From Candidatus Nealsonbacteria bacterium DGGOD1a (GTDB lineage Bacteria > Patescibacteriota > Minisyncoccia > Minisyncoccales > UBA5738): a DNA stretch of 64,000 nucleotides. A program made the translations under genes and the position numbers. Of the stretch, positions 2,923-63,698 are shown in pieces. The DNA is taken from positions 198,222 through 262,221 of the forward strand of contig CP092821.1 in the NCBI GenBank assembly GCA_022530585.1. Direction: 5' to 3'. The notes beneath the pieces were generated by a model. The model saw nothing but the letters and a program-made list of their open reading frames with translations, was not told the origin of the DNA and made no database searches. Numbering within the stretch: the first letter of the stretch is position 1; every line of letters begins with the position of its first letter.

Positions 2923-3065
2923 AATTGAAGAATTGGTTCGGCGGACGGTTTTACCGAACCGATAATGTTAGATTCTCGGAGTTGAAATTTTGCCGAACGA
3001 AATTTTAACGATATATTTTTTCCCCGAATTTTGATTTTTGATATTTACATTTTAAATTCGCGATT

Positions 3066-4127
3066 ATGGATTATTCCCAATTACTTGAAAAATTTCTCGC
3101 GGTTACGGTGCAAAAAGAAGCGTCCGATCTTCATATGTCGGCCGGATATCCTCCCATCATCCGCGTCAACGGCGAGTTGTGGGCGATTCCAAAAGAGCCC
3201 AATCTTTCGCCGCGCGACAGCCAGGGGCTGGCGTTTGCCATGATGACTCCCGAACAGCAGAACCAATTTTTGAAGTTCAAAGAAATCGATTTTTCCTACG
3301 CGTTTCAGGGCAAAGAGCGTTTCCGCACCAATATCTTTTTCCAGAAGGGATGCATATCGTGCGCTTTGCGGTTGATTCCGACCAAAATACGCACATTGAA
3401 AGAACTTAATCTGCCGCCGGTTTTGCAGAAATTCGTTGAAGCGGAACAGGGTTTCGTTCTGATCACCGGCCCGGCGTCGCACGGCAAGTCTACCACATTG
3501 GCGGCGTTTATCGACGCGATCAATCATTCGCGCTGCGATCATATAATTACCATCGAGGATCCGATCGAATACTTGTTTACCCCGGATGCTTCCGTGATCG
3601 AGCAAAGAGAGTTGAATTCCGACACCTATTCGTTTTCAATGGCGTTGCGGTCGGTTTTCCGCCAGGATCCGGATGTGATCATGATCGGTGAAATGCGCGA
3701 TGTGGAAACGATTTCCACGGCGCTGACCGCCGCGGAAACCGGCCATTTGGTGTTCGCGACATTGCACACGAATTCGGCTTCGCAAAGCATCCACCGCATC
3801 GTTGATTCGTTCCCGGCCGAACAGCAGGCGCAAATCCGCGCCCAGCTTTCCTCTTCGCTTTTGGGAATTGTATCCCAGCGGCTGATTTTATCGAACAAAG
3901 GAGGCATGGTGCCCGCCTGTGAAGTGCTTTTCAATAATTTTGCCGTGGGCAATCTTATCCGTGAAAACAAAATTCACGAAATTCCGCTGGTCATCGAAAC
4001 TTCTTCGAAGGACGGGATGATTTCGCTTAACAAATCGCTGGCCAATCTGGTGAAAAACGGCGACATTTCACTGGAAAAAGCGATATCGCATTCTTTGAAT
4101 CCGCAGGAGTTGGAAGCGTTAATCTAA
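3066..4127 (+). CDS. pilT: twitching-motility (retraction) ATPase PilT family
   Basis: 353 aa. Motifs ASDLH, Walker A variant GPASHGKST, IEDPIEY, RQDPDVIMIGEMRD and ATLHTNSA. Confidence 0.9.
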   Translation: MDYSQLLEKFLAVTVQKEASDLHMSAGYPPIIRVNGELWAIPKEPNLSPRDSQGLAFAMMTPEQQNQFLKFKEIDFSYAFQGKERFRTNIFFQKGCISCALRLIPTKIRTLKELNLPPVLQKFVEAEQGFVLITGPASHGKSTTLAAFIDAINHSRCDHIITIEDPIEYLFTPDASVIEQRELNSDTYSFSMALRSVFRQDPDVIMIGEMRDVETISTALTAAETGHLVFATLHTNSASQSIHRIVDSFPAEQQAQIRAQLSSSLLGIVSQRLILSNKGGMVPACEVLFNNFAVGNLIRENKIHEIPLVIETSSKDGMISLNKSLANLVKNGDISLEKAISHSLNPQELEALI

Positions 4128-4281
4128 AAAATTCGAAGCACGAATGTCGAATATCGAAACAAATTTAAAATTCGAATGTTCAAATGTCCGAAACGAAATT
4201 TAAAATTCGTTTTAAAATTTCGAAATTTGAAACTTCAGATTTGTTTCGATATTCGATATTCGATATTCGAAATCTGAAATT
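4128..4281. repeat. AT-rich palindromic intergenic module, 'TTCGAA/CGAATAT' dialect (P1)
   Basis: Fills the pilT-pilC spacer. The arms cgaatatcgaaacaaat and atttgtttcgatattcg are inverted copies. The left ~40 nt (aaaattcgaagcacgaa..tcgaata.tcgaaacaa) recur at 38880-38920. Confidence 0.6.
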
Positions 4282-7359: not shown

Positions 7360-7461
7360 CTTGAATTATGAAACGCTTTGCATTCGGGGTCTATCCCTTG
7401 CGTAATCGCAAGGGTTAGACCCCTCTAAAGCATTTGCATTTAATGATTTCGCAATTCAAAG
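7360..7461. mobile_element. 102-bp palindromic MITE-like element, copy 1
   Basis: Terminal inverted repeats cttgaattatgaaacgctttg / gatttcgcaattcaaag. The central hairpin is ggggtctatcccttgcg-taatc-gcaagggttagacccc. A near-identical copy lies at 57395-57496. Confidence 0.6.
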
Positions 7462-8620: not shown

Positions 8621-9460
8621 ATGGATTTTATTTTTTGGTATGTTTTTGTTTCGATATTCGCCGTCGGTATGATTGTCGGCAGTTTTTTGAATTGCTTGAT
8701 CTGGCGATCCTATAATAACGAAAGCGCGCTGGCCGGCCGGTCGTATTGCCCGAATTGCCGCCATAAACTGGCGTGGTTTGATTTGGTTCCTTTGTTCAGT
8801 TTTTTATTTTTGCGCGCCAAATGCCGTTATTGCGAAAAACCGATATCGTGGCAATATCCTTTGGTTGAGTTGGCAACCGGAATTCTTTTCGTCGCCGCGG
8901 CGCGGGCGTTCGCCTCCGGGATTTTTAACGGTTATCTGCCGGTGATTTCCGCGCTTGAGCTGTTGGCGTATTGGGCGATTTTGTCTTCGCTGGTTGTGGT
9001 GTTTGTCGCGGATTTGCGCTGGTATTTTATTCCCGACGGCGCGATCGCCGCGGGGATTTTTGGCGCCGCGGTTTTAACGATCGCGCGATTTTTTGAAAGC
9101 GATTTTATTTTTCACCGATTCGATTGGAACATAATTTTCAATCCGCTGTTGTCGGGGCTGTTCGCCGCGCTGTTTTTTCTGGCGATATTTTTGTTTTCGC
9201 GCGGAAAGTGGATCGGCTTTGGCGATGTCAAATACGCGCTTTTGATGGGATTGGCGCTTGGTTTTCCCGAGACTTTGCTGGCGCTGTTCCTTGCGAATTT
9301 TTTTGGTGCTATAATAGGTTTAGGATTGATCGCGGTTCGGCGCAAGAAGATGTCGTCGGAGATTCCTTTCGGGCCGTTTCTGGTTGGCGGAACGCTGGTC
9401 GCGCTGTTCTTTTCCGGTTCGATACTGAATTGGTATTTGTCGATAGGGATGCATAATTAA
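8621..9460 (+). CDS. pilD: prepilin peptidase / N-methyltransferase (A24 family)
   Basis: 279 aa. N-terminal Zn-finger-like CPNCRHKL...CRYCEKPISWQYPLVELATG, multiple TM helices, and the catalytic-Asp contexts ADLRWYFIPD and IGFGDVKYA. Confidence 0.9.
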   Translation: MDFIFWYVFVSIFAVGMIVGSFLNCLIWRSYNNESALAGRSYCPNCRHKLAWFDLVPLFSFLFLRAKCRYCEKPISWQYPLVELATGILFVAAARAFASGIFNGYLPVISALELLAYWAILSSLVVVFVADLRWYFIPDGAIAAGIFGAAVLTIARFFESDFIFHRFDWNIIFNPLLSGLFAALFFLAIFLFSRGKWIGFGDVKYALLMGLALGFPETLLALFLANFFGAIIGLGLIAVRRKKMSSEIPFGPFLVGGTLVALFFSGSILNWYLSIGMHN

Positions 9461-9576
9461 AAATTTAAAAATCAAAATGAAAAACGACAAATTAAAATAT
9501 TAAAATGTCGAATTTCAATTTTGTCATTTTCCATTTTGATTTTTACATTTTGCATTAAGCTTCATAAATAGGCGCG
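9461..9576. repeat. AT-rich palindromic intergenic module, 'AAATCAAAATG/TGACAA' dialect (P2)
   Basis: aaaaatcaaaatgaaaaacgacaaa ... ttttgtcattttccattttgattttt are long imperfect inverted arms spanning the whole pilD-to-minor-pilin spacer. Confidence 0.6.
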
Positions 9577-22619: not shown

Positions 22620-22748
22620 GTGAAAATTTAAAATTTAGAAATCAAAAATCAAAATGACAATGTAAAATTGAAAAATTATTCAATTCGATGATTCTCAATT
22701 TTAAAATGTAATTTTCAATTTTGATATTTTATTTTTTAATTTATTATT
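22620..22748. repeat. AT-rich palindromic intergenic module, P2 dialect
   Basis: gaaatcaaaaatcaaaatgacaatgtaaaattgaaaaatta ... aaaatgtaattttcaattttgatatttt, ending at the rpoB start codon. Confidence 0.55.
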
Positions 22749-37465: not shown

Positions 37466-37561
37466 CAATGATACTGCGACTTACCGCGGCACATTTTAGC
37501 GTAAAATATTACCTAATTATTTCGAACATTCGAGTTTCGAATATTCGAACATTGAAAAACT

Positions 37562-38874: not shown

Positions 38875-39033
38875 AATTTTAGGAAAATTCGAAGCACGAA
38901 ACTCGAATATTCGAAACAATTTTCAAATTATCAAATGGCCAAATTTTCAAAATGAATCCGTTTGAATATTTGGAAATTTGAACATTCGAATTTGTTTCGG
39001 ATTTCGAACATTCGGATATTCGGATTTAGCAGT
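38875..39033. repeat. AT-rich palindromic intergenic module, P1 dialect
   Basis: aaaattcgaagcacgaaactcgaatattcgaaacaa ... gaacattcgaatttgtttcggatttcgaacattcgg. It shares its left ~40 nt with 4130-4170. Confidence 0.6.
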
Positions 39034-39543
39034 TTAGAAAGGGATGTCCTTTACATTGATGTCGCCGTCTTCTTCGATGATCGGGATATCGGTTTCCTCG
39101 GGCGCGGATTTGGCCGCCGGATTTGCTTCGCCATAACCTTGGGCGGAGGCGGGTTTCTGGTTGTAATTCGCCGGTGTTTGCGGAGATTGATAGCCGCCGC
39201 TTGATTCATTGTTGCGCGGGCCCAATTGCATCGATTCGGCGATGATTTCGGTGCGATAGCGTTTATTGCCCGCCTGATCTTGCCAATCCCGCGTTTGGAG
39301 CCGGCCTTCAAACATTGCCAGAGATCCTTTTTTCAGATACTGTCCGGCGATTTCCGCCAGCCGTCCAAAGAGAACCAGATTGTGAAATTCGGTTTTTTGC
39401 TGGCGCTGGTTGGTGTTTTTGTCGACATAGAACCGGTCGGTCGCCAGACCGAAATTCGCCACTTGCTGGCCGCTGGGCATGACTCGGATTTCCGGATCGC
39501 GCGTGAGCCGGCCGATCAAGAATACTTTGTTTAGATTCATCAA
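39034..39543 (-). CDS. ssb: single-stranded DNA-binding protein
   Basis: OB fold [19 protein letters not shown]...[14 protein letters not shown], a Gly/Pro/Gln-rich linker, and the acidic tip [18 protein letters not shown]. Confidence 0.92.
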
Positions 39544-39670
39544 ATTAAAATCAAAATGTAAAAATCAAAATGAAAAATGACAATGCAAAATTAAAAATTA
39601 TTAAATTTTAAAATTTGCCCATTTCACATTTTAAATTGTAATTTTGATTTTTGATTTTTCAATTTACAAT
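39544..39670. repeat. AT-rich palindromic intergenic module, P2 dialect
   Basis: aaaatcaaaatgtaaaaatcaaaatgaaaaatgacaatgcaaaattaaaaatta ... cacattttaaattgtaattttgatttttgatttt, inside the rpsF-ssb-rpsR operon. Confidence 0.6.
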
Positions 39671-40282
39671 TTACTTTAGGATTTCGTCCAGTTTTTCCTC
39701 AATGTCGCGCAATTCGGCTTTGATTTTTGTCCGGCGTTTGGGTTTGGCGGGTTTCGCTTCTTCGGAAGCGGGTTTTTCTTCCTTGGTTTCTTCTTTGGGA
39801 ATTTCGATTTTTTCTTCCTTGGTTTCTTTAATTTCTTTTTCCGCAATTTCCGCCGCGGGTTTTTCCGCCTTTTTTTCTTCCGCCGCGGGGAAGCTTTGCG
39901 CTACGGTTGTTTCGATTCCCGCGGACGCGGTTCTTGCCGCGGGCCGTTCGCGCCGCGGTTCTCTTTTCAGCTTTTCCGGGTCATACCAAATTACCAAGCC
40001 GCGCAGTATTTCGGGGATCGTGTCGGTTTCTTTTTTAAAATCAACCGCGAACGCCGGTTCGCTCTGAAATAGGATGGTATTAACATAGGCCGCATCTTGT
40101 TTTTTAATGCGGTAAGCCAGCCTTTTTTTATAGGATTTGGGCAGGTCGGTGACAGTGCCGTTTTTGGCGGTTATCAGCGCGACCAACTTATCTTGAAGCT
40201 TTTTGGCCTCATCCTCGGGCATATCCTGCCGGGTCAGGTAAGTGAACTCGTAATGCTTCATCATATTGCTTTTTTCGGCCAT
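39671..40282 (-). CDS. rpsF: 30S ribosomal protein S6 with long Lys/Glu-rich C-terminal extension
   Basis: MKHYEFTYLTRQDMPEDEAKKLQDKLVALI... forms the S6 core (~100 aa). About 100 aa of KE-rich low complexity follow. The start may be the MMKHYE Met. Confidence 0.85.
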   Translation of the reverse strand: MAEKSNMMKHYEFTYLTRQDMPEDEAKKLQDKLVALITAKNGTVTDLPKSYKKRLAYRIKKQDAAYVNTILFQSEPAFAVDFKKETDTIPEILRGLVIWYDPEKLKREPRRERPAARTASAGIETTVAQSFPAAEEKKAEKPAAEIAEKEIKETKEEKIEIPKEETKEEKPASEEAKPAKPKRRTKIKAELRDIEEKLDEILK

Positions 40283-41837: not shown

Positions 41838-41877
41838 GCCACAGGGGTTCAACCCCTGTTAGACTGTTGGTTATGAG

Positions 41878-41905: not shown

Positions 41906-42898
41906 TTAAGATATTAAACCCATGGCGGTTTTTACTTCGTGCATGGTTTCGCTGGCGAGAGTTTGCGCTTTTGCCGCGCCTTTTTTTAATATGTCGTTTA
42001 TATAAACTTGGCGCGTCATCAGCTCGTTGCGCTTGCGGCGCAGCGGCTCCAAATAATCAATCAGCGTTTGCGCGGTTATTTTTTTGAATTCGGAATAGCT
42101 TTTTCCTTTAAATTCCTGTTCCAGCCGGCTTACCGGTAAATTCCGTATCAGCGCGTTGATCGCCAAAAGGTTTGAAATCCCCGGCTTTTTCTTGGAGTCG
42201 AATTTAATAACTTTTTCGGTGTCGGTAACCGCGCTTGTTATTTTCTTCCGGATTGATTCGGGTTCCTCGAACAGGCCGATGCATCCTTTGGGATTGCCGG
42301 TCTTGGACATTTTCTTTTCCGGCTCGGCCAGCGACATTACTTTGGCTCCGGTTTCGGGAATTATTGATTGCGGTTCCTTTAAAATTTTTCCGAATTGGTT
42401 GTTGAAATAACGCGCGATCGCGCGGGTTAATTCAACATGCTGTTGCTGGTCTTTGCCGATCGGCACCCCGTCGGTTTTATAAAGCAGGATGTCGGCGGCC
42501 ATCAGCAAAGGATAATTGAACAATCCGGCGTTTACATACTCGGGATGCTGTTTTGATTTGTCTTTGAATTGCGTCATCCGCTTTAATTCGCCCATGGGCG
42601 TCACGGTTCCCAAGAGCCATGCCAATTCGCAATGTTCTTTGACCGCGGATTGCGTGAACAAAACGCATTTGTCGGGATTCAACCCGACCGCCAGATAATC
42701 CACGGCCAATTCGAATATCCGGGATTGCAATTTTCGCGGATCAAAAGGCGTGGTTATCGCGTGCAAGTCAACCACGCAAAATATCGATTCGGCTTGATTT
42801 TGCAAATCGATCCATTGCCTGATCGCGCCCAGATAGTTTCCCAAATGAATGTCGCCCGTGGGGCGAATGCCGGAAAAAATTCTCATAACAATTTTCAA
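41906..42898 (-). CDS. trpS: tryptophan--tRNA ligase
   Basis: 330 aa, class I synthetase. HIGH-type GIRPTGDIHLGNYLGA, KMSKT present, and GxDQxQH as GKDQQQHVE. Confidence 0.93.
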   Translation of the reverse strand: MKIVMRIFSGIRPTGDIHLGNYLGAIRQWIDLQNQAESIFCVVDLHAITTPFDPRKLQSRIFELAVDYLAVGLNPDKCVLFTQSAVKEHCELAWLLGTVTPMGELKRMTQFKDKSKQHPEYVNAGLFNYPLLMAADILLYKTDGVPIGKDQQQHVELTRAIARYFNNQFGKILKEPQSIIPETGAKVMSLAEPEKKMSKTGNPKGCIGLFEEPESIRKKITSAVTDTEKVIKFDSKKKPGISNLLAINALIRNLPVSRLEQEFKGKSYSEFKKITAQTLIDYLEPLRRKRNELMTRQVYINDILKKGAAKAQTLASETMHEVKTAMGLIS

Positions 42899-43030
42899 TT
42901 TTCAAGATCCAATTTTCAATGAATGATTCAATGTTTCAATGAATCAAACGGGATGCGCGGCATTTCGTTTGGAAATTGATTCATTGGAAATTGATTCTAA
43001 ATTGAAAATTGTAAATTGAAAATTATGATT
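42899..43030. repeat. AT-rich palindromic intergenic module, 'CAATTTTCAATTTTCAA' dialect (P3)
   Basis: caattttcaattttcaag...caatgaatcaaacgggatgcgcggcatttcgtttgg...ttgaaaattgtaaattgaaaatt, with terminal inverted arms and an inner caaacg/cgtttg hairpin. Confidence 0.55.
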
Positions 43031-45347: not shown

Positions 45348-45374
45348 CGAGAGCCCTTCGCCCGAAGGCGAAGG

Positions 45375-45513
45375 AATTTTCAATAAACAATTTTCAATTT
45401 TCAAACAAATGCGAATAACGCGTTTCGTTTGCCTTATTGAATCATAAGCAAAGCTTGATTTCGTTTTGCTCAATTTGAAAATTCAATGAAAATTAAAAAT
45501 TGTAAATTGAAAA
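45375..45513. repeat. AT-rich palindromic intergenic module, P3 dialect
   Basis: caattttcaattttcaaac ... gaaaattaaaaattgtaaattgaaaatt. The inner module gcaaagcttgatttcg... is the reverse complement of 49477-49510. Confidence 0.55.
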
Positions 45514-46416
45514 TTAATTGAGCTTCAGGTTCTTGATGTATTCCCGGATGTCTTCCGAATAATCCGGGTGGTTGAGGGCGAACTCAATCACGGTTTTTAG
45601 GTATTCGGTCTTGTTGCCGGTGTCATAGTATTTTCCGTTTTTGATTTCGCAGGCGTACATCGGATAGCCTTCTTGTATCAGTTTGTTGATCGCGTCCACC
45701 AGCCAGATTTCGCCGCCTTTTGACGGTTGAAGATTTTCAATGATGCCAAAAACTTGCGGAGGAAGAATGTAGGCGCCGTGGGTGGCCAGATTGGAAGGCG
45801 CTTCTTCGGGCAAGGGTTTTTCCACGATTTTTTTAATTCGGAAAATACCGTCTTCAACTTTTTCCATATCCGCGATGCCATAGCGGGTTACATCGTCTTT
45901 GGATTCGATGCGGACTCCGGAAATAACTCCGCCGCCGTATTTTTCGTGCACATCGATGATTTGCCGCAGGCGGGGAGGATTGGCCGTGATAAATTCGTCT
46001 CCCCACATCACCGCGAAATATTCGCCGCTGATGACCGGTTTTGCGGCCAACACCGGCATGGCGTTGCCGTAGTAATCGCTCTTTTGCCGGATATATAAAA
46101 AGTTTGCCAATCCGGCGATGTCTTTAATCGTTTGCAAAGCTTTGGTTTTGCCTTGAGTTTCCAAAAATCTTTCCAGATCGCTTGATCGGTCAAAATGGTC
46201 TTCGATGGCTCGCTTTTGCCATCCGGTGATAAGAATCACATCTTTAATGCCGCTGGCGACCGCTTCTTCGACCACATATTGAATCACCGGTTTATCGATG
46301 ATCGGCAACATTTCTTTGGGCATTGCTTTGGTGGCGGGCAAAAAACGGGTGCCCCAACCCGCGGCCGGGATTACCACTTTCGTTATTTTATCTCCGGTAT
46401 TGTTTTGTTTTTGCAT
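45514..46416 (-). CDS. galU: UTP--glucose-1-phosphate uridylyltransferase
   Basis: Motifs VIPAAGWGTRFLPATKAMPKEMLPIIDKPVIQYVVEEA and VDLxxKP-like EKP. ATG at 46416; an in-frame TTG at 46431 is also possible. Confidence 0.88.
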   Translation of the reverse strand: MQKQNNTGDKITKVVIPAAGWGTRFLPATKAMPKEMLPIIDKPVIQYVVEEAVASGIKDVILITGWQKRAIEDHFDRSSDLERFLETQGKTKALQTIKDIAGLANFLYIRQKSDYYGNAMPVLAAKPVISGEYFAVMWGDEFITANPPRLRQIIDVHEKYGGGVISGVRIESKDDVTRYGIADMEKVEDGIFRIKKIVEKPLPEEAPSNLATHGAYILPPQVFGIIENLQPSKGGEIWLVDAINKLIQEGYPMYACEIKNGKYYDTGNKTEYLKTVIEFALNHPDYSEDIREYIKNLKLN

Positions 46417-48510: not shown

Positions 48511-48623
48511 TTTTCAATTTTTCCGCCAAAGGACGGGTCCGCCTCCGGCGGACAATTTTCAAACAAAATACAAATTCGCATTTCGTTTGATATATTGAAT
48601 CATTGAAAATTGGAGTTTGAAAA
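48511..48623. repeat. AT-rich palindromic intergenic module, P3 dialect, with embedded GC hairpin
   Basis: gcaattttcaattttt-ccgccaaaggacgggtccgcctccggcggac-aattttcaaac...gaaaattggagtttgaaaatt. The GC module is repeated at 49431-49466. Confidence 0.55.
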
Positions 48624-49171: not shown

Positions 49172-49394
49172 TTAATTTGAATTGAGGTCGTTCCCCTGCG
49201 AAGCTTGGCGTAGCAGGGGTGCGACCTCGGCAAACTGTATTTTGAATTCCGTATCATTCTTCCATTCTACCAAACCCTACTGAATTGGCAATAAAAAATG
49301 TAAATCATTTTGACAAGAATTTGACAAACAATTTGGGAAATTATACATAGATAGTACGGATTATCAGTCGAAGGTCGCGATTGATAATCGCAAA

Positions 49395-49611
49395 CATTAA
49401 AACAATTTTCAATTTTCAAACTCCAATTTTCCCGCCAAAGGACGGATCCGCCTCCGGCGGACAATGAATTTCCAAATTGAGCGTAGCGAAATCAAGCTTT
49501 GCTTATTTTCAATGAATCAAACAGAATGCCAATTTAAATTTTGTTTGTAATATTGGAATTTGGAACATTCATCGAAAATTGATAATTGGAAATTGAAAAT
49601 TATCCAGAATT
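49395..49611. repeat. AT-rich palindromic intergenic module(s), P3 dialect, upstream of groES
   Basis: caattttcaattttcaaactccaatttt-cccgccaaaggacggatccgcctccggcggac-...-gaaaattgataattggaaattgaaaatt. Confidence 0.55.
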
Positions 49612-49908: not shown

Positions 49909-51654
<1,746 letters not shown>

Positions 51655-52776: not shown

Positions 52777-52893
52777 CGTTCGCCGGGATGCGGGTTTTCG
52801 TATTTCAAAAGGGTCTATTCTTGCTGCCCGTCCCGAAGCTTGTCCCGAGATTAACGAGGGATAGACCCTTGAAATCCCGTCCCCGGCGAATCG
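52777..52893. repeat. long palindromic element related to the GGGATAGACCC family (variant M3)
   Basis: The arms cgttcgccgggatgcgggttttcgtatttcaaaagggtctat and atagacccttgaaatcccgtccccggcgaatcg are inverted. The core gggtctat/atagaccc is shared with 7388-7432 and 57422-57466. Confidence 0.5.
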
Positions 52894-57394: not shown

Positions 57395-57496
57395 CTTTGA
57401 ATTACGAAACGCTTTGTATTTGGGGTCTATCCCTTGCGTAATCGCAAGGGTTAGACCCCTTCAAGGCATTTGAATTCAATGGTTTCGTAATTCAAG
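57395..57496. mobile_element. 102-bp palindromic MITE-like element, copy 2
   Basis: ctttgaattacgaaacgctttgtatttggggtctatcccttgcgtaatcgcaagggttagaccccttcaaggcatttgaattcaatggtttcgtaattcaag. Most positions are identical to 7360-7461. Confidence 0.6.
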
Positions 57497-60944: not shown

Positions 60945-62210
60945 ATGGTTTTCGCCCTCCCCAAAATTTTAATGTTCGGTTGGGAATTTCCGCCTCACAA
61001 TTCCGGCGGATTGGGTGTGGCCTGCCAAGGTTTGACCGGCGGTTTGGCGTCGTTGGGAGCAAAAATAACTTTTGTTTTGCCCAAAAAAATCAATTGCCAG
61101 CCGGCGCCGTGCCGCTTTGTTTTCGGGGATGCATGGACCGGCAAAAAAAGATATTTGTCCGGAGTTGATATGATCGCGGTTAATTCGCCGCTGTCGCCCT
61201 ACCTGACCGCGGAGAGTTATTCGCGGGAGATTGATCGCTGGGGAGAAAAAGATTTCACGCCGCGGCATTCAATCTGGCGCGAAGATTTGGTGGGGGAAGC
61301 GATGCGCTACGGCGAGATTGCCGAAAATATCGCGCGAGTCGAAGATTTTGATGTGATCCATTGCCATGATTGGCTTTCTTTGCCCGCGGGGATGGCCGCC
61401 AAAAGGGCTTCGGGCAAGCCGCTGGTGTTCCATATCCATGCCACCGAATACGACCGGGTGGGCGAAAACGGGTTGAATCGCGACATTTGCCTTATCGAAA
61501 AACGGGGGTTTGAAATTGCCGACGCGGTGGCCGCGGTGAGCGATTATACCAAGCGGCGTGTTGTCGACTGCTATGGCGCCGCGCCGGAAAAAATCACGGT
61601 GGTGCCCAACGCCGTCAATCACGCGGAATACGCGCCGGCGGTTTCCGACGAATTTTTAAAATTGAAAAAAAACGGCAAAAAAATCGTGTTGTTCGTGGGG
61701 CGGCTCACATTCCAAAAGGGGCCGGATTATTTTTTGAAAGCCGCGCGCGCCGTGGCGCGGATTGATAAAAGCGCGATGTTTGTTTTTTCCGGATCGGGAG
61801 ATATGGAGCGGTGGCTGATCGAAGAAGCCGCGCGGCTGGGATTGGCCGACCGAGTGGTTTTTGCCGGATTCTTGCGCGGCGCGGATTTGGCGCGTCTTTA
61901 CAAAGCCGCGGATTTATATGTGATGCCGTCGGTGTCCGAACCGTTCGGGCTCACTTCGCTTGAAGCGCTGGCCAGCGGCGCGCCGATATTGGTTTCGCGT
62001 CAGTCGGGAGTGGGAGAAATGGTTTCCAATTGCTTGAAGTGCGATTTTTGGGACACAAATCAAATGGCGGCAAAAATTCTGGCGGCATTGCGCTATTCGG
62101 CGCTGGGCGAAGAATTGCGCCAAAACGGATTGGTTGAAGTTAAAAAATTCGACTGGGTCGATTCGGCAAAAAAATGCTTGGGAATTTACCAAAGCGTTAT
62201 GACCGCTTAA
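60945..62210 (+). CDS. glycosyltransferase (glycogen/starch-synthase-like, GT4/GT5 type)
   Basis: 421 aa. N-terminal FPPHNSGGLGVACQGL and C-terminal PSVSEPFGLTSLEALASGAPILVS (EX7E-type). Confidence 0.8.
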   Translation: MVFALPKILMFGWEFPPHNSGGLGVACQGLTGGLASLGAKITFVLPKKINCQPAPCRFVFGDAWTGKKRYLSGVDMIAVNSPLSPYLTAESYSREIDRWGEKDFTPRHSIWREDLVGEAMRYGEIAENIARVEDFDVIHCHDWLSLPAGMAAKRASGKPLVFHIHATEYDRVGENGLNRDICLIEKRGFEIADAVAAVSDYTKRRVVDCYGAAPEKITVVPNAVNHAEYAPAVSDEFLKLKKNGKKIVLFVGRLTFQKGPDYFLKAARAVARIDKSAMFVFSGSGDMERWLIEEAARLGLADRVVFAGFLRGADLARLYKAADLYVMPSVSEPFGLTSLEALASGAPILVSRQSGVGEMVSNCLKCDFWDTNQMAAKILAALRYSALGEELRQNGLVEVKKFDWVDSAKKCLGIYQSVMTA

Positions 62211-62333
62211 AATTAAAAGTTGAAAAATCAAAATGTAAAATGACAATGTAAAATAAAAAATTACAAAATCAGAATTCCGCCAGGAATTCTACCTTAATTT
62301 TTAATTTTGATTTTTACATTTTCAATTTGAAGC
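62211..62333. repeat. AT-rich palindromic intergenic module, P2 dialect, with central GC hairpin
   Basis: gaaaaatcaaaatgtaaaatgacaatgtaaaat...agaattcc-gcca-ggaattct-accttaatttttaattttgatttttacatttt. Almost the whole spacer is repeated at 63564-63698. Confidence 0.65.
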
Positions 62334-63563
62334 GTGCCCAATATTTGTCTTTATCTTCACACCCATCAGCCGCGGCGATTGAAAAAATTCTCGGTTTTCG
62401 ACATTGGCAATCATGGCGACTATTTCGATCACGAGAACAACCGGCGGATTTTGGAAAAAGTCGCGCGCAAAAGTTATTTGCCGGCCAACCGGATGTTTTT
62501 GGATTTGATCCGCAAATCGCGCGGGCGCTTCAAATTGAGCTTGAGCGTCACCGGAATTTTACTGGAGCAATTGGAGGCCGAGTTTCCCGAAGTTTTGAAA
62601 AGTTTCAGGGATTTGGTGGAGACGGGTTGCTGCGAATTGGTTTCGGAAACCTATTACCACTCTTTGGCTTCGGTTTATTCCGCGGATGAATTCCGCCATC
62701 AAGTGGCGTTGCAGAACAATGCTTTGGAAAAACATTTTGATTTCGCGCCGAAATTTTTTCGAAATACGGAATTGGTGTATAATAATAATATCGCCGCCAT
62801 GGTGGAGCAAATGGGGTTTTCCGGAATGTTGGCCGAAGGGTGGGATGAGATTTTGCAATGGCGTTCGCCCAATTTTTTATACAAGGCTAAAAACGGTTCT
62901 TTGCGCCTGCTGGCGCGGAATTACAAGCTTAGCGATGATATCGGGTTCCGTTTTTCCAATCGCGAATGGAAGGAATGGCCGCTCACGGCGGAAAAATACG
63001 CCGAGTGGGTGAATCTTTTAAACATTGATTCGGGCGCGCAAACATTGAATCTCTTTATGGATTATGAAACATTCGGCGAACACCAATGGGAAGAGACCGG
63101 GATTTTCAAATTTTTCAAAGCGCTTTTCTGGAAGATTTCGGAAAATCCGCGCAATCGATTCGTTTTGCCGTCGCGGCTGATCGAGGAAATCCAGCCGGTC
63201 GGAGAATTGGATTTTCACCGTTTGGTTTCCTGGGCGGATATGGAGCGCGATTTGAGCGCGTGGAACGGCAATAAAATGCAGCAGGCGGCGCTGGAAAACA
63301 CATACGCGCTGGAAAACACCATTAAGGAAACAAAGGATGAGGCGCTGTTGGACGAGTGGCGCAAACTGCAAACCAGCGACCACTTCTACTATATGTGCAC
63401 CAAATGGTTTTCCGACGGCGATGTGCACAAATATTTCAATCCGTACGAAAGTCCCTACGAATCGTTTATCGCGTTTATGAATATCCATAATGATTTAAAG
63501 ATTAAGGCGGAAAAAATTTTGGAGTCAAAAAAGGTCGAACAAGCAAGCATGGTTAAAAATTGA
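62334..63563 (+). CDS. glycoside hydrolase family 57 (alpha-amylase/branching-enzyme type)
   Basis: GTG start, 409 aa. Motifs LYLHTHQPRRL, ETYYHSL, FMDYETFGEHQW and WADMERDLSAWxGN. Confidence 0.85.
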   Translation: MPNICLYLHTHQPRRLKKFSVFDIGNHGDYFDHENNRRILEKVARKSYLPANRMFLDLIRKSRGRFKLSLSVTGILLEQLEAEFPEVLKSFRDLVETGCCELVSETYYHSLASVYSADEFRHQVALQNNALEKHFDFAPKFFRNTELVYNNNIAAMVEQMGFSGMLAEGWDEILQWRSPNFLYKAKNGSLRLLARNYKLSDDIGFRFSNREWKEWPLTAEKYAEWVNLLNIDSGAQTLNLFMDYETFGEHQWEETGIFKFFKALFWKISENPRNRFVLPSRLIEEIQPVGELDFHRLVSWADMERDLSAWNGNKMQQAALENTYALENTIKETKDEALLDEWRKLQTSDHFYYMCTKWFSDGDVHKYFNPYESPYESFIAFMNIHNDLKIKAEKILESKKVEQASMVKN

Positions 63564-63698
63564 GAAATCAAAATGTAAAATGACAATTTAAAATTGAAAA
63601 TTACGCGCTCGGACATATTCGTCTCTGGCGATAAAAATCAAAATTCCGCAAGGAATTTTACCTCAATTTTTAATTTTGATTTTTGCATTTTAAATTTT
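63564..63698. repeat. AT-rich palindromic intergenic module, P2 dialect (duplicate of 62211-62333 with ~35-nt insert)
   Basis: gagaaatcaaaatgtaaaatgacaatttaaaattgaaaattac[gcgctcggacatattcgtctctggcgat]aaaaatcaaaattcc-gcaa-ggaatttt-acctcaatttttaattttgatttttgcatttt. Confidence 0.65.

Follow-up and report, generated by a model that had tools for sequence, protein, structure and literature searches.

What are the long AT-rich palindromes that fill spacers between protein-coding genes in Candidatus Nealsonbacteria DGGOD1a, a bacterium of a benzene-degrading enrichment culture? The question is raised by a 64,000-nt stretch of this genome, hereafter the window (47% G+C overall), in which an initial annotation had described a palindrome at 39544-39670, between rpsF and ssb, and related ones at 9461-9576, 22620-22748, 49909-50010, 62211-62333 and 63564-63698. 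All six spacers read as described. Their six left arms and six reverse-complemented right arms align to a single consensus, ...AATGTAAAATTGAAAAATCAAAATGNAAAATGACAATGTAAAATTGAAAA, and so represent inverted arms of one family of AT-rich palindromic spacer elements, which we call P2. As set out below, P2 is best filed as a kind of intervening sequence (IVS) that resides in mRNA spacers of Patescibacteria and is mostly gene-less; it is of more interest than a private transposable element of the miniature, inverted-repeat kind (MITE).

The flanking genes match the initial guesses as well. In the order of the window, the six elements lie between genes for a prepilin peptidase and a pilin-like protein, between an unassigned gene and rpoB, between rpsF and ssb (minus strand), between groES and groEL, between a GT4 and a GH57 gene, and between the GH57 gene and the next gene. 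Each has a right or left arm that ends 0-20 nt from a start codon, and the rpsF-ssb and groES-groEL copies lie inside operons, both as proposed. A search with an arm profile (nhmmer) recovered all twelve arms and a thirteenth, solitary one, giving 13 arms in 64 kb. The features are listed here with the scores of each arm against the profile hidden Markov model (HMM) and the z-score of the folded hairpin.

9454..9557, P2 element between the prepilin-peptidase stop (9460) and the pilin-like ATG (9577); arms 9454-9506 and 9511-9557; arm HMM 57.0 and 48.3 bits; hairpin -21.3 kcal/mol; z -4.0
22624..22742, P2 element 6 nt before the rpoB ATG (22749); arms 22624-22676 and 22691-22742; arm HMM 44.4 and 24.0 bits; inverted repeat I4 of 51 nt, 78% complementary; z -2.4
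39547..39672, P2 element separating the minus-strand genes rpsF and ssb (Pfam Ribosomal_S6 and SSB); arms 39547-39599 and 39621-39672, the left arm adjoining the ssb start at 39543; arm HMM 62.5 and 33.0 bits; exact 24-mer match at 39561-39584; z -2.7
49909..50004, P2 element that fills the spacer between groES and groEL; arms 49909-49954 and 49952-50004; groEL GTG at 50011; arm HMM 30.7 and 60.3 bits; z -6.5; orthologous copies in L010, L125, L126 and L117
62210..62328, P2 element between the GT4 glycosyltransferase and GH57 genes; full left arm 62210-62262, shortened right arm 62297-62328 covering model positions 2-33 only; arm HMM 59.0 and 25.4 bits; z -5.5
62271..62290, inner G+C hairpin AGAATTCCGCCAGGAATTCT followed by ACCTTAATTTTT, nested in 62210-62328; terminator-like on either strand according to a terminator scan
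63553..63697, P2 element that separates the GH57 gene from the gene after it (ATG 63699); left arm 63553-63602, shortened right arm 63666-63697; arm HMM 53.9 and 26.3 bits; z -4.1; orthologous spacer compared in L049 and L041
63604..63659, interior of 63553-63697: 27-nt extra insert at 63604-63630, missing from both relatives (L041 and L049), and inner hairpin AAAATTCCGCAAGGAATTTT at 63640-63659
3018..3052, minus strand, solitary P2 arm, T-rich on the plus strand, 13 nt before the ATG at 3066; HMM 22.2 bits, E 1e-4; gaattttgatttttgatatttacattttaaatt

We give practically no weight to the idea that AT-rich spacers of low complexity produced the inverted arms by chance. The P2 spacers have 15-22% G+C, and in such DNA the dominant A- and T-runs pair trivially. 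Against this stands the 24-mer AAAATCAAAATGNAAAATGACAAT, which at up to three mismatches has 8 matches in the window, compared with 0.01 expected from dinucleotide shuffles; AAATCAAAAT has 17 matches, compared with 2.1 expected. Folded as RNA, the six spacers form one long imperfect hairpin each, at -18 to -31 kcal/mol, with z-scores of -2.4 to -6.5 under dinucleotide shuffling. A stricter control, in which each half is shuffled apart so that the asymmetry of an A-rich left and a T-rich right half is kept, gives z-scores of -2.5 to -6.6. Of the six, 39544-39670 is the weakest. A 52-nt arm consensus is moreover common to more than 100 other genomes. Word counts, the split-half fold control and the cross-genome consensus together refute a chance origin, and the P2 arms pass the shuffled-composition control that had been set beforehand as the refuting test.

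At gathering thresholds, Rfam reports only tRNA in the window, and the P2 spacers match no curated covariance model. No rRNA motifs are found in the window or in 120 comparison loci, and all six P2 copies sit between protein-coding genes.

Each arm is built of AAAATKN heptamers, about eight in tandem, and bears the signature AAATCAAAATGNAAAATGACAAT. The conserved stretch measures about 52 nt, and its consensus, derived from 120 arms of other genomes, is AAATtnAAAATtnAAAAATCAAAATGnAAAATGACAATgtAAAATTtAAAAaT. The A-runs in this consensus are more than 90% conserved and the seventh base of the heptamer is free. An element consists of two such arrays inverted across a short loop, the A-rich array first and the T-rich array second on either strand; the partner is often a second arm type, TAAATATCAAAA.../ACAGTTC. 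In the window copies 62210-62328 and 63553-63697 the second arm is shortened and an inner G+C hairpin is followed by ACCNNAATTTTT. The same layout, a hairpin and then ACCNNAATTTT, is present in L001, L002, L004, L019, L041 and L045 (L-numbers denote the comparison loci). Apart from the inner hairpin of these two copies, which is also the sole terminator-like feature, the P2 stems are A-U only. A consensus structure of the inner-hairpin variant (MAFFT/RNAalifold, 8 copies) contains no predicted pairs, the stems differing in length and being misaligned.

A 20-base P2 core was scanned in one genome per species and matched at least 120 genome stretches, of which all but about five chance matches show the extended consensus of about 52 nt. 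The hosts are nearly all Patescibacteria, among them Nealson-, Moran-, Yanofsky-, Falkow-, Magasanik-, Taylor-, Uhr-, Kuenen-, Kerfeld-, Lipton-, Doudna- and Zambryskibacteria. P2 also occurs in Planctomycetota, including the closed 2.96-Mb chromosome CP070715, and in metagenome-assembled genomes (MAGs) of Nitrospirae and Elusimicrobia. A phage origin was considered and rejected: a scan of viral contigs gave four matches, all of them chance matches that lack the flanking consensus.

A census of arms was made with the nhmmer profile in 0.87 Mb, comprising the 120 loci, which had been picked because they bear the motif, and the window. It yielded 244 arms, namely 77 inverted pairs and 90 unpaired arms. 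The gap within a pair has a trimodal distribution. In about 48 pairs the arms are at most 50 nt apart and form gene-less elements of 95-130 bp, as in the window; about 20 have gaps of 60-200 nt, which hold other small nested repeats; and about 8 have gaps of 340-392 nt.

This longest class of gap contains a 123-aa open reading frame (ORF), with the second arm directly after its stop codon. The ORF starts at the arm's own ATG, AAATCAAA-ATG-NAA-AAT-GAC-AA..., and its first 12 codons or so lie within the arm. The product matches PF05635 (23S rRNA intervening-sequence protein, E 1e-17) and TIGR02436 (four helix bundle protein, E 5e-22). Its homologues fill more than 5,400 protein clusters. The best 120 of these are all about 123 aa long, about 80% identical and spread over many lineages of the candidate phyla radiation (CPR), and all begin with M(E/Q)ND(K/N/S)xKFKNEF, which is the translated arm. 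Some homologues are extended N-terminally, for example MQNVKIKMENDK, reading further heptamers. A PF05635/TIGR02436 ORF is found between P2-type arms in about 8 of the 77 pairs, all in other genomes, and four of five gene-carrying cassettes are co-directional with the host genes. The ATG-bearing arm lies at the upstream stop in 19 cases and at the downstream start in 11, with 6 undecided, so an orientation bias is not clear. Judged from sequence, the P2 arms are thus the terminal inverted repeats of cassettes that bear a PF05635 gene, and the gene-less copies probably arise from such cassettes. A relative of the PF05635 family is Avd, a protein of diversity-generating retroelements (PMC10053308).

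The arrangement extends to other members of the protein family. Three further four-helix-bundle paralogues are bracketed by inverted heptamer arrays, at L057 2690-3091 (AACTCAA-type units), L119 4836-5216 (CAAATG(T/C)CAAA-type) and L001 2727-3116 (CTAATTN-type), and these arrays too run into the N-terminal codons of the enclosed genes. A second large subfamily, MSNQAQNPNDKK..., has the same inverted-array layout in L133 and L135; the arrays of L119 and L133 read CAAATG(T/C)CAAA / AAATCCAAA. L135 (1873-1926) and L136 (1873-1880) encode an identical four-helix-bundle protein between the same neighbours and are set apart by a deletion of 46 nt that lies between direct repeats of the 3' arm. This polymorphism in repeat number is reminiscent of the heptamer count in the Coxiella intervening sequence, which is likewise variable.

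P2 elements take up a characteristic position relative to genes: nearly all adjoin a start codon, at a distance of about 0-10 nt. Flank classes were assigned from the longest neighbouring ORF, and 58 arm pairs could be classified on both sides: 49 are stop-start (co-directional), 8 are start-start (divergent) and 1 is stop-stop (convergent). A start codon lies -8 to +14 nt from the outer end of an arm in 50 of 78 cases (58 ATG, 15 TTG and 5 GTG beside arms), and the upstream stop codon is usually at or just within the outer end of the other arm. The base of the stem would bring together the upstream stop and the downstream start. A start codon that adjoins the arm leaves no space for a Shine-Dalgarno sequence, and the arm itself would be the translation-initiation region. 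In L010 and L125, P2 lies downstream of the groESL promoter (TTGACA-N17-TATAAA/TATACA) and of an operator that resembles CIRCE (controlling inverted repeat of chaperone expression), which makes the element part of the transcript.

In L033, L048, L054, L100, L108 and L109 a lone A-rich arm stands directly before a housekeeping gene and in frame with it. Such arms could yield false N-terminal extensions, MQNDN(V/L)KLKI..., in gene calls (for example MurB and Fmt), and the window arms also contain ATG-TAA and other mini-ORFs. Annotators should be aware that arm-encoded ATGs can produce spurious N-terminal extensions and mini-ORFs.

A comparison of spacer content in related genomes, which the initial annotation had proposed, reveals that the occupants differ between relatives and that P2 arms are strongly kept where present. 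The groES-groEL spacer was compared between eleven Paceibacteria, and P2 occupies it in the window, L010, L125, L126 and L117. Five relatives have palindromes of other 7-8-mer units at this place: TTCGAAT in L127, TTAGCTN in L128, TACGAAT in L129, GAAAATT in L131 (of a type that we call P1) and AAATCCAA/ATGTCAAA in L132, the last being the gene-less form of the second four-helix-bundle subfamily. The L130 spacer is empty, 28 nt long, AU-rich and devoid of a Shine-Dalgarno sequence. The region upstream of groES holds a P1-type composite in the window. In L010, whose identity to the window is 93%, it holds a further copy of that genome's groES-groEL P2, identical over the printed context, and in L125 a copy of P2 at about 90% identity. 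In a three-way alignment of the spacer after the GH57 gene, L041 (74% related) shares the inner-hairpin variant of the window and L049 (93% related) has a full second arm. Occupants of one site differ at 93% identity, and the spacer is empty in L130; a clean filled and empty pair with alignable flanks was not found. Spacer occupants are thus exchanged on short time scales.

Where P2 is retained, its arms change little. The orthologous groES-groEL arms are 98% (L125), 93-98% (L126) and 88% (L117) identical to those of the window, whereas third codon positions of groEL are 60%, 68% and 44% identical, respectively. The contrast indicates purifying selection in place or very efficient homogenisation, as opposed to neutral decay.

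The control region of groESL in the window (49321-49388) comprises a promoter, TTGACA-N17-TATACA, and then an inverted repeat, ATTATCAGTC-N9-GATTGATAAT, that resembles a diverged CIRCE operator. L128-L131 carry a near-canonical CIRCE, TTAGCACTC-N9-...TGCTAA. The repeat elements are placed after this operator and before the groES start.

On balance, we consider it probable that P2 elements are gene-less, IVS-like foldback elements that are co-transcribed with their neighbours, probably cut by RNase III, and that also supply the leader of the downstream gene. Since the same arms enclose a PF05635 gene elsewhere, the nearest known kind of element is the rRNA intervening sequence and not a transposase-derived MITE. 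The element would be transcribed as part of the flanking operon, and its arms would pair into an A-U stem of about 40 bp with the upstream stop and the downstream start at its base. This stem could be an RNase III substrate, as in rRNA intervening sequences, for which it plausibly needs perfect helices of about 13-14 bp within its length; cleavage would separate the cistrons. The distal arm would then serve as a short, AU-rich leader of the downstream gene, lacking a Shine-Dalgarno sequence. Copies may spread or be overwritten locally, and once they provide the leader of an essential gene they would be kept by selection. RNA processing and protein binding, two of the roles first suggested for these palindromes, remain putative functions of P2.

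Several observations weigh against this reading. The A-U-only stems have a mismatch about every 7 nt, and the fold z-scores are weak in two of the six window copies (-2.4 and -2.7). It is by analogy with rRNA intervening sequences that we propose RNase III cleavage and, indeed, the folding of the hairpin in vivo. A check on arm co-variation found an identity at variable heptamer positions of 0.40 for own pairs and 0.45 for cross pairs, with no excess, so that pairing as such is not demonstrably selected; as the loci were chosen by one arm type, the test is biased and speaks just of the lack of a positive signal. The arm sequence could instead be read by a protein. Site-specific variants such as AAAGATC, common to the groES-groEL copies of the window and L125, point to vertical inheritance under selection rather than to frequent re-insertion. 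A tblastn search of the 64-kb window, including its six P2 copies, found no four-helix-bundle gene. No target-site duplication can be defined: the ends are often TTAA, which is also part of the heptamer consensus (TTAAAA words), and they merge with stop and start codons. Nor is a transposase definable for P2, and it is distribution and turnover that suggest mobility. Finally, some MAG taxon labels are wrong (L041 is called Saccharibacteria yet is 74% identical to the window), and the cases outside CPR need caution for this reason.

Two alternatives take P2 for a signal of its host. As a cis-regulatory cassette, its T-rich arm would act as an outward promoter (TTGTCA-N17-TAnATT) giving short-leader or leaderless mRNA, or as a translation enhancer independent of Shine-Dalgarno sequences, and the four-helix-bundle gene would merely borrow these signals. 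The arms do adjoin start codons that lack a Shine-Dalgarno sequence, P2 is depleted from convergent spacers, and orthologous arms are conserved far above synonymous sites and share site-specific variants. Promoter hexamers fit some copies well, such as TTGTCA-17-TACATT in the 9461 copy, and the best sigma-70-like match in 15 kb, ATGACA-17-TATAAT (11/12), falls within the groES-groEL element. This match faces inward, however, away from groEL. The would-be invariant A of the -10 box is the free seventh base of the heptamer and is an A in just 34% of the 120 arms behind the consensus, so that a conserved sigma-70 promoter, as in the promoter or UP-element cassette considered at the outset, is not evident in that consensus even though individual copies fit. 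In L010 and L125 a canonical promoter and operator precede P2, and P2 stands between cistrons that are co-transcribed. A leader or promoter requires neither an inverted partner arm nor near-identity across phyla, and other unit sequences replace P2 in the groES-groEL spacer; we judge a cis-regulatory cassette rather unlikely. A bidirectional intrinsic terminator or attenuator would share with P2 the order of an A-rich arm, a hairpin and a T-rich arm, and in 62210-62328 and 63553-63697 a T-rich run follows an inner G+C hairpin, one of the two being picked by the terminator scan on both strands. Yet only the single convergent element among the 58 classified lies where a terminator is expected; the other 57 touch a gene start, and copies reside within groES-groEL and rpsF-ssb, which bears out the initial doubt about a simple terminator role. 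In four of the six stems the T-run lacks adjoining G-C pairs, and the window has genuine G+C terminators at other sites, such as 38650, 51694 and 56838. We regard termination as very improbable.

The remaining alternative is a transposable origin of the ordinary kind, in which P2 is a MITE-like element or one akin to repetitive extragenic palindromes (REPs) and their doublets, REPINs, mobilised in trans by a transposase such as Y1 (IS200-like, or a REP-associated tyrosine transposase, RAYT), with the four-helix-bundle gene as a passenger. P2 is a small inverted-repeat doublet with many copies per genome and nested small-repeat insertions, its spacers exchange occupants between close relatives, and a close relative has a Y1_Tnp gene (L125, 997-1680). 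Small size, terminal inverted repeats, many copies and no coding capacity, all hallmarks of MITEs, are found in P2. A transposase-encoding parent with the same terminal repeats is not: the sole long form carries the four-helix-bundle gene, which is not a known transposase. No transposase was found between P2 arms, and this gene, the sole recurrent protein-coding cargo, has an arm-encoded N-terminus in all of the best 120 of more than 5,400 homologues. The Y1_Tnp gene of L125 is flanked by a different, G+C-rich hairpin, ACAGGGGTTCAACCCCTGT, and not by P2 arms; the P2 arms are not self-palindromic REPs, and a target-site duplication is not definable. Mobilisation by such a transposase is, in our estimate, improbable. 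The suggestion of a very small MITE family that has colonised spacers stands in that P2 is a dispersed repeat family, intergenic and present within operons. It does not stand as regards a private family, since P2 occurs in many classes of Patescibacteria and some other phyla, nor as regards descent, P2 being kin to PF05635 cassettes rather than transposase-derived.

The hairpin ACAGGGGTTCAACCCCTGT also occurs in the window at 41841-41859, in a convergent spacer, and is identical to the one directly after the Y1_Tnp (IS200-like/RAYT-like) gene in L125 (997-1720). The two are possibly a REP-RAYT pair unrelated to P2.

Beyond the reading of P2 as IVS-like foldback elements, the lack of co-variation and the distinct partner-arm type fit sequence recognition by a factor at least as well as simple pairing, and the cognate four-helix-bundle protein would be the obvious candidate. 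We also raise a wider idea, which we hold to be possible rather than probable: four-helix-bundle proteins (S23p/IVP, Avd-like) may be sequence-specific partners of their own heptamer arms, each subfamily recognising its own flavour much as transposases do their terminal repeats. Proteins and arms would define an as yet unrecognised class of elements that live in transcripts, with the rRNA intervening sequence as the special case that was seen first. In Patescibacteria, gene-less copies would have been taken over to serve core genes (groEL, rpoB, ssb and pilin) as leaders or processing sites. If so, the expression of these genes would be coupled to RNase III, to a four-helix-bundle protein or to both. 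The relationship between protein and repeat is now directly testable.

Other repeat families share the spacers of the window. P1, with GAAAATT/CAATTTT heptamers (42885-43029, 45361-45529, 48511-48623 and 49404-49601), has a P2-like architecture with a different unit; its T-rich array comes first and its A-rich array adjoins the start codon, and the same flavour fills the L131 groES-groEL spacer. A third flavour, with (A/T)TTCGAA(T/A) units, is found at 4128-4281, 38920-39033 and 37516-37561, and also in the groES-groEL spacer of L127; the copy at 4128-4281 is a 154-nt hairpin of -54.6 kcal/mol. An identical 38-nt G+C-rich palindrome, GGGGTCTATCCCTTGCGTAATCGCAAGGGTTAGACCCC, lies at 7386-7423 and 57422-57459, in two long divergent spacers, with a similar copy near 52790-52870.

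The families are also found inside one another. A small hairpin repeat, CCGCCAAAGGACGG(G/A)TCCGCCTCCGGCGGAC, lies within P1 at window 48523-48556 and 49432-49465 and within P2 arms in L072 and L083, so that small repeats nest in one another. In L005 (1500-1700), L099 (1-200), L032, L007 and L046, P2 occupies the loop of a palindrome, CCGCGAAAGCGGGAATCCAG...CTGGATTCCCGCTTTCGCGG; conversely, GGGAATCC-type repeats occur within P2. This reciprocal nesting suggests that hairpin loops are preferred sites of insertion or recombination.

Taken together, inverted heptamer arrays with or without a four-helix-bundle gene reside between protein-coding genes in Patescibacteria and account, as P2-like elements, for a large part of the unusual AT-rich spacers that CPR genomes contain. 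They come in several flavours that track protein subfamilies, and gene-less copies are abundant at the 5' ends of essential genes, where they are conserved far above neutral expectation. We found no description of P2-like elements in CPR in the literature searched, whose coverage was incomplete, so that an earlier description is possible.

Among known repeats, REPs and REPINs resemble P2 as inverted short-repeat doublets that form hairpins of about 100 nt, lie between genes and occur in many copies. REPs are individually palindromic, G+C-rich and flank a RAYT gene, whereas P2 arms are A/T heptamer arrays that are not self-palindromic. The Correia or nemis elements of Neisseria are about 100-150 bp long, intergenic and co-transcribed, have inverted repeats and form hairpins that are cut by RNase III, and can affect the expression of adjacent genes. 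Their terminal repeats measure 26 bp and are accompanied by a TA duplication, and the elements are restricted to a single genus. Their general likeness to P2 does not extend to sequence, and P2 differs in its heptamer-array arms, its long form with a four-helix-bundle gene and its multi-phylum range. Tandem heptanucleotide arrays in intergenic regions are known from cyanobacteria as short tandemly repeated repetitive (STRR) sequences, and long inverted repeats of short tandem units from the foldback elements of eukaryotes. These belong to unrelated organisms and have unrelated sequences, and we know of no tie of either to four-helix-bundle genes and of no placement at start codons.

The PF05635 family of small proteins is very large, and to our knowledge no role has been established for it outside diversity-generating retroelements, in which the related Avd acts. 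Avd, itself PF05635-like, and the P2 cargo protein share the four-helix-bundle superfamily; no reverse transcriptase, template repeat or variable repeat adjoins the P2 cassettes that were examined.

The closest counterpart is the intervening sequence of 23S rRNA genes with its S23p ORF, known in Leptospira, Coxiella, Xanthomonas and Brucella; such insertions have been known for more than 30 years, and their function and means of spread are unexplained (PMC4990558). In Coxiella, the inverted-repeat stem is cut by RNase III, and two or three tandem GACAGAT heptamers, variable between strains, stand just before the S23p start codon (PMC4990558). Insertions bearing 23S_rRNA_IVP have also been recorded in rRNA genes of CPR (Tsurumaki et al. 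2024, doi 10.1101/2024.02.27.582315). The rRNA elements lie in helix 25 or 45 of 23S rRNA, or in 16S rRNA, whereas P2 lies in spacers between protein-coding genes. Unlike them, P2 is ORF-less in most copies, occurs many times per genome and has ends that coincide with stop and start codons; its arms are long arrays of about eight heptamers, almost pure A/T, and would be cleaved by RNase III if the analogy holds. In both, inverted repeats form a long stem around an optional PF05635 ORF of about 120 aa, tandem heptamers of variable copy number (46 nt between L135 and L136) stand directly before the start codon, the ORF is prone to loss, and the element is transcribed within the host transcript. 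P2 may thus be viewed as the mRNA-spacer counterpart of the classical rRNA intervening sequence.

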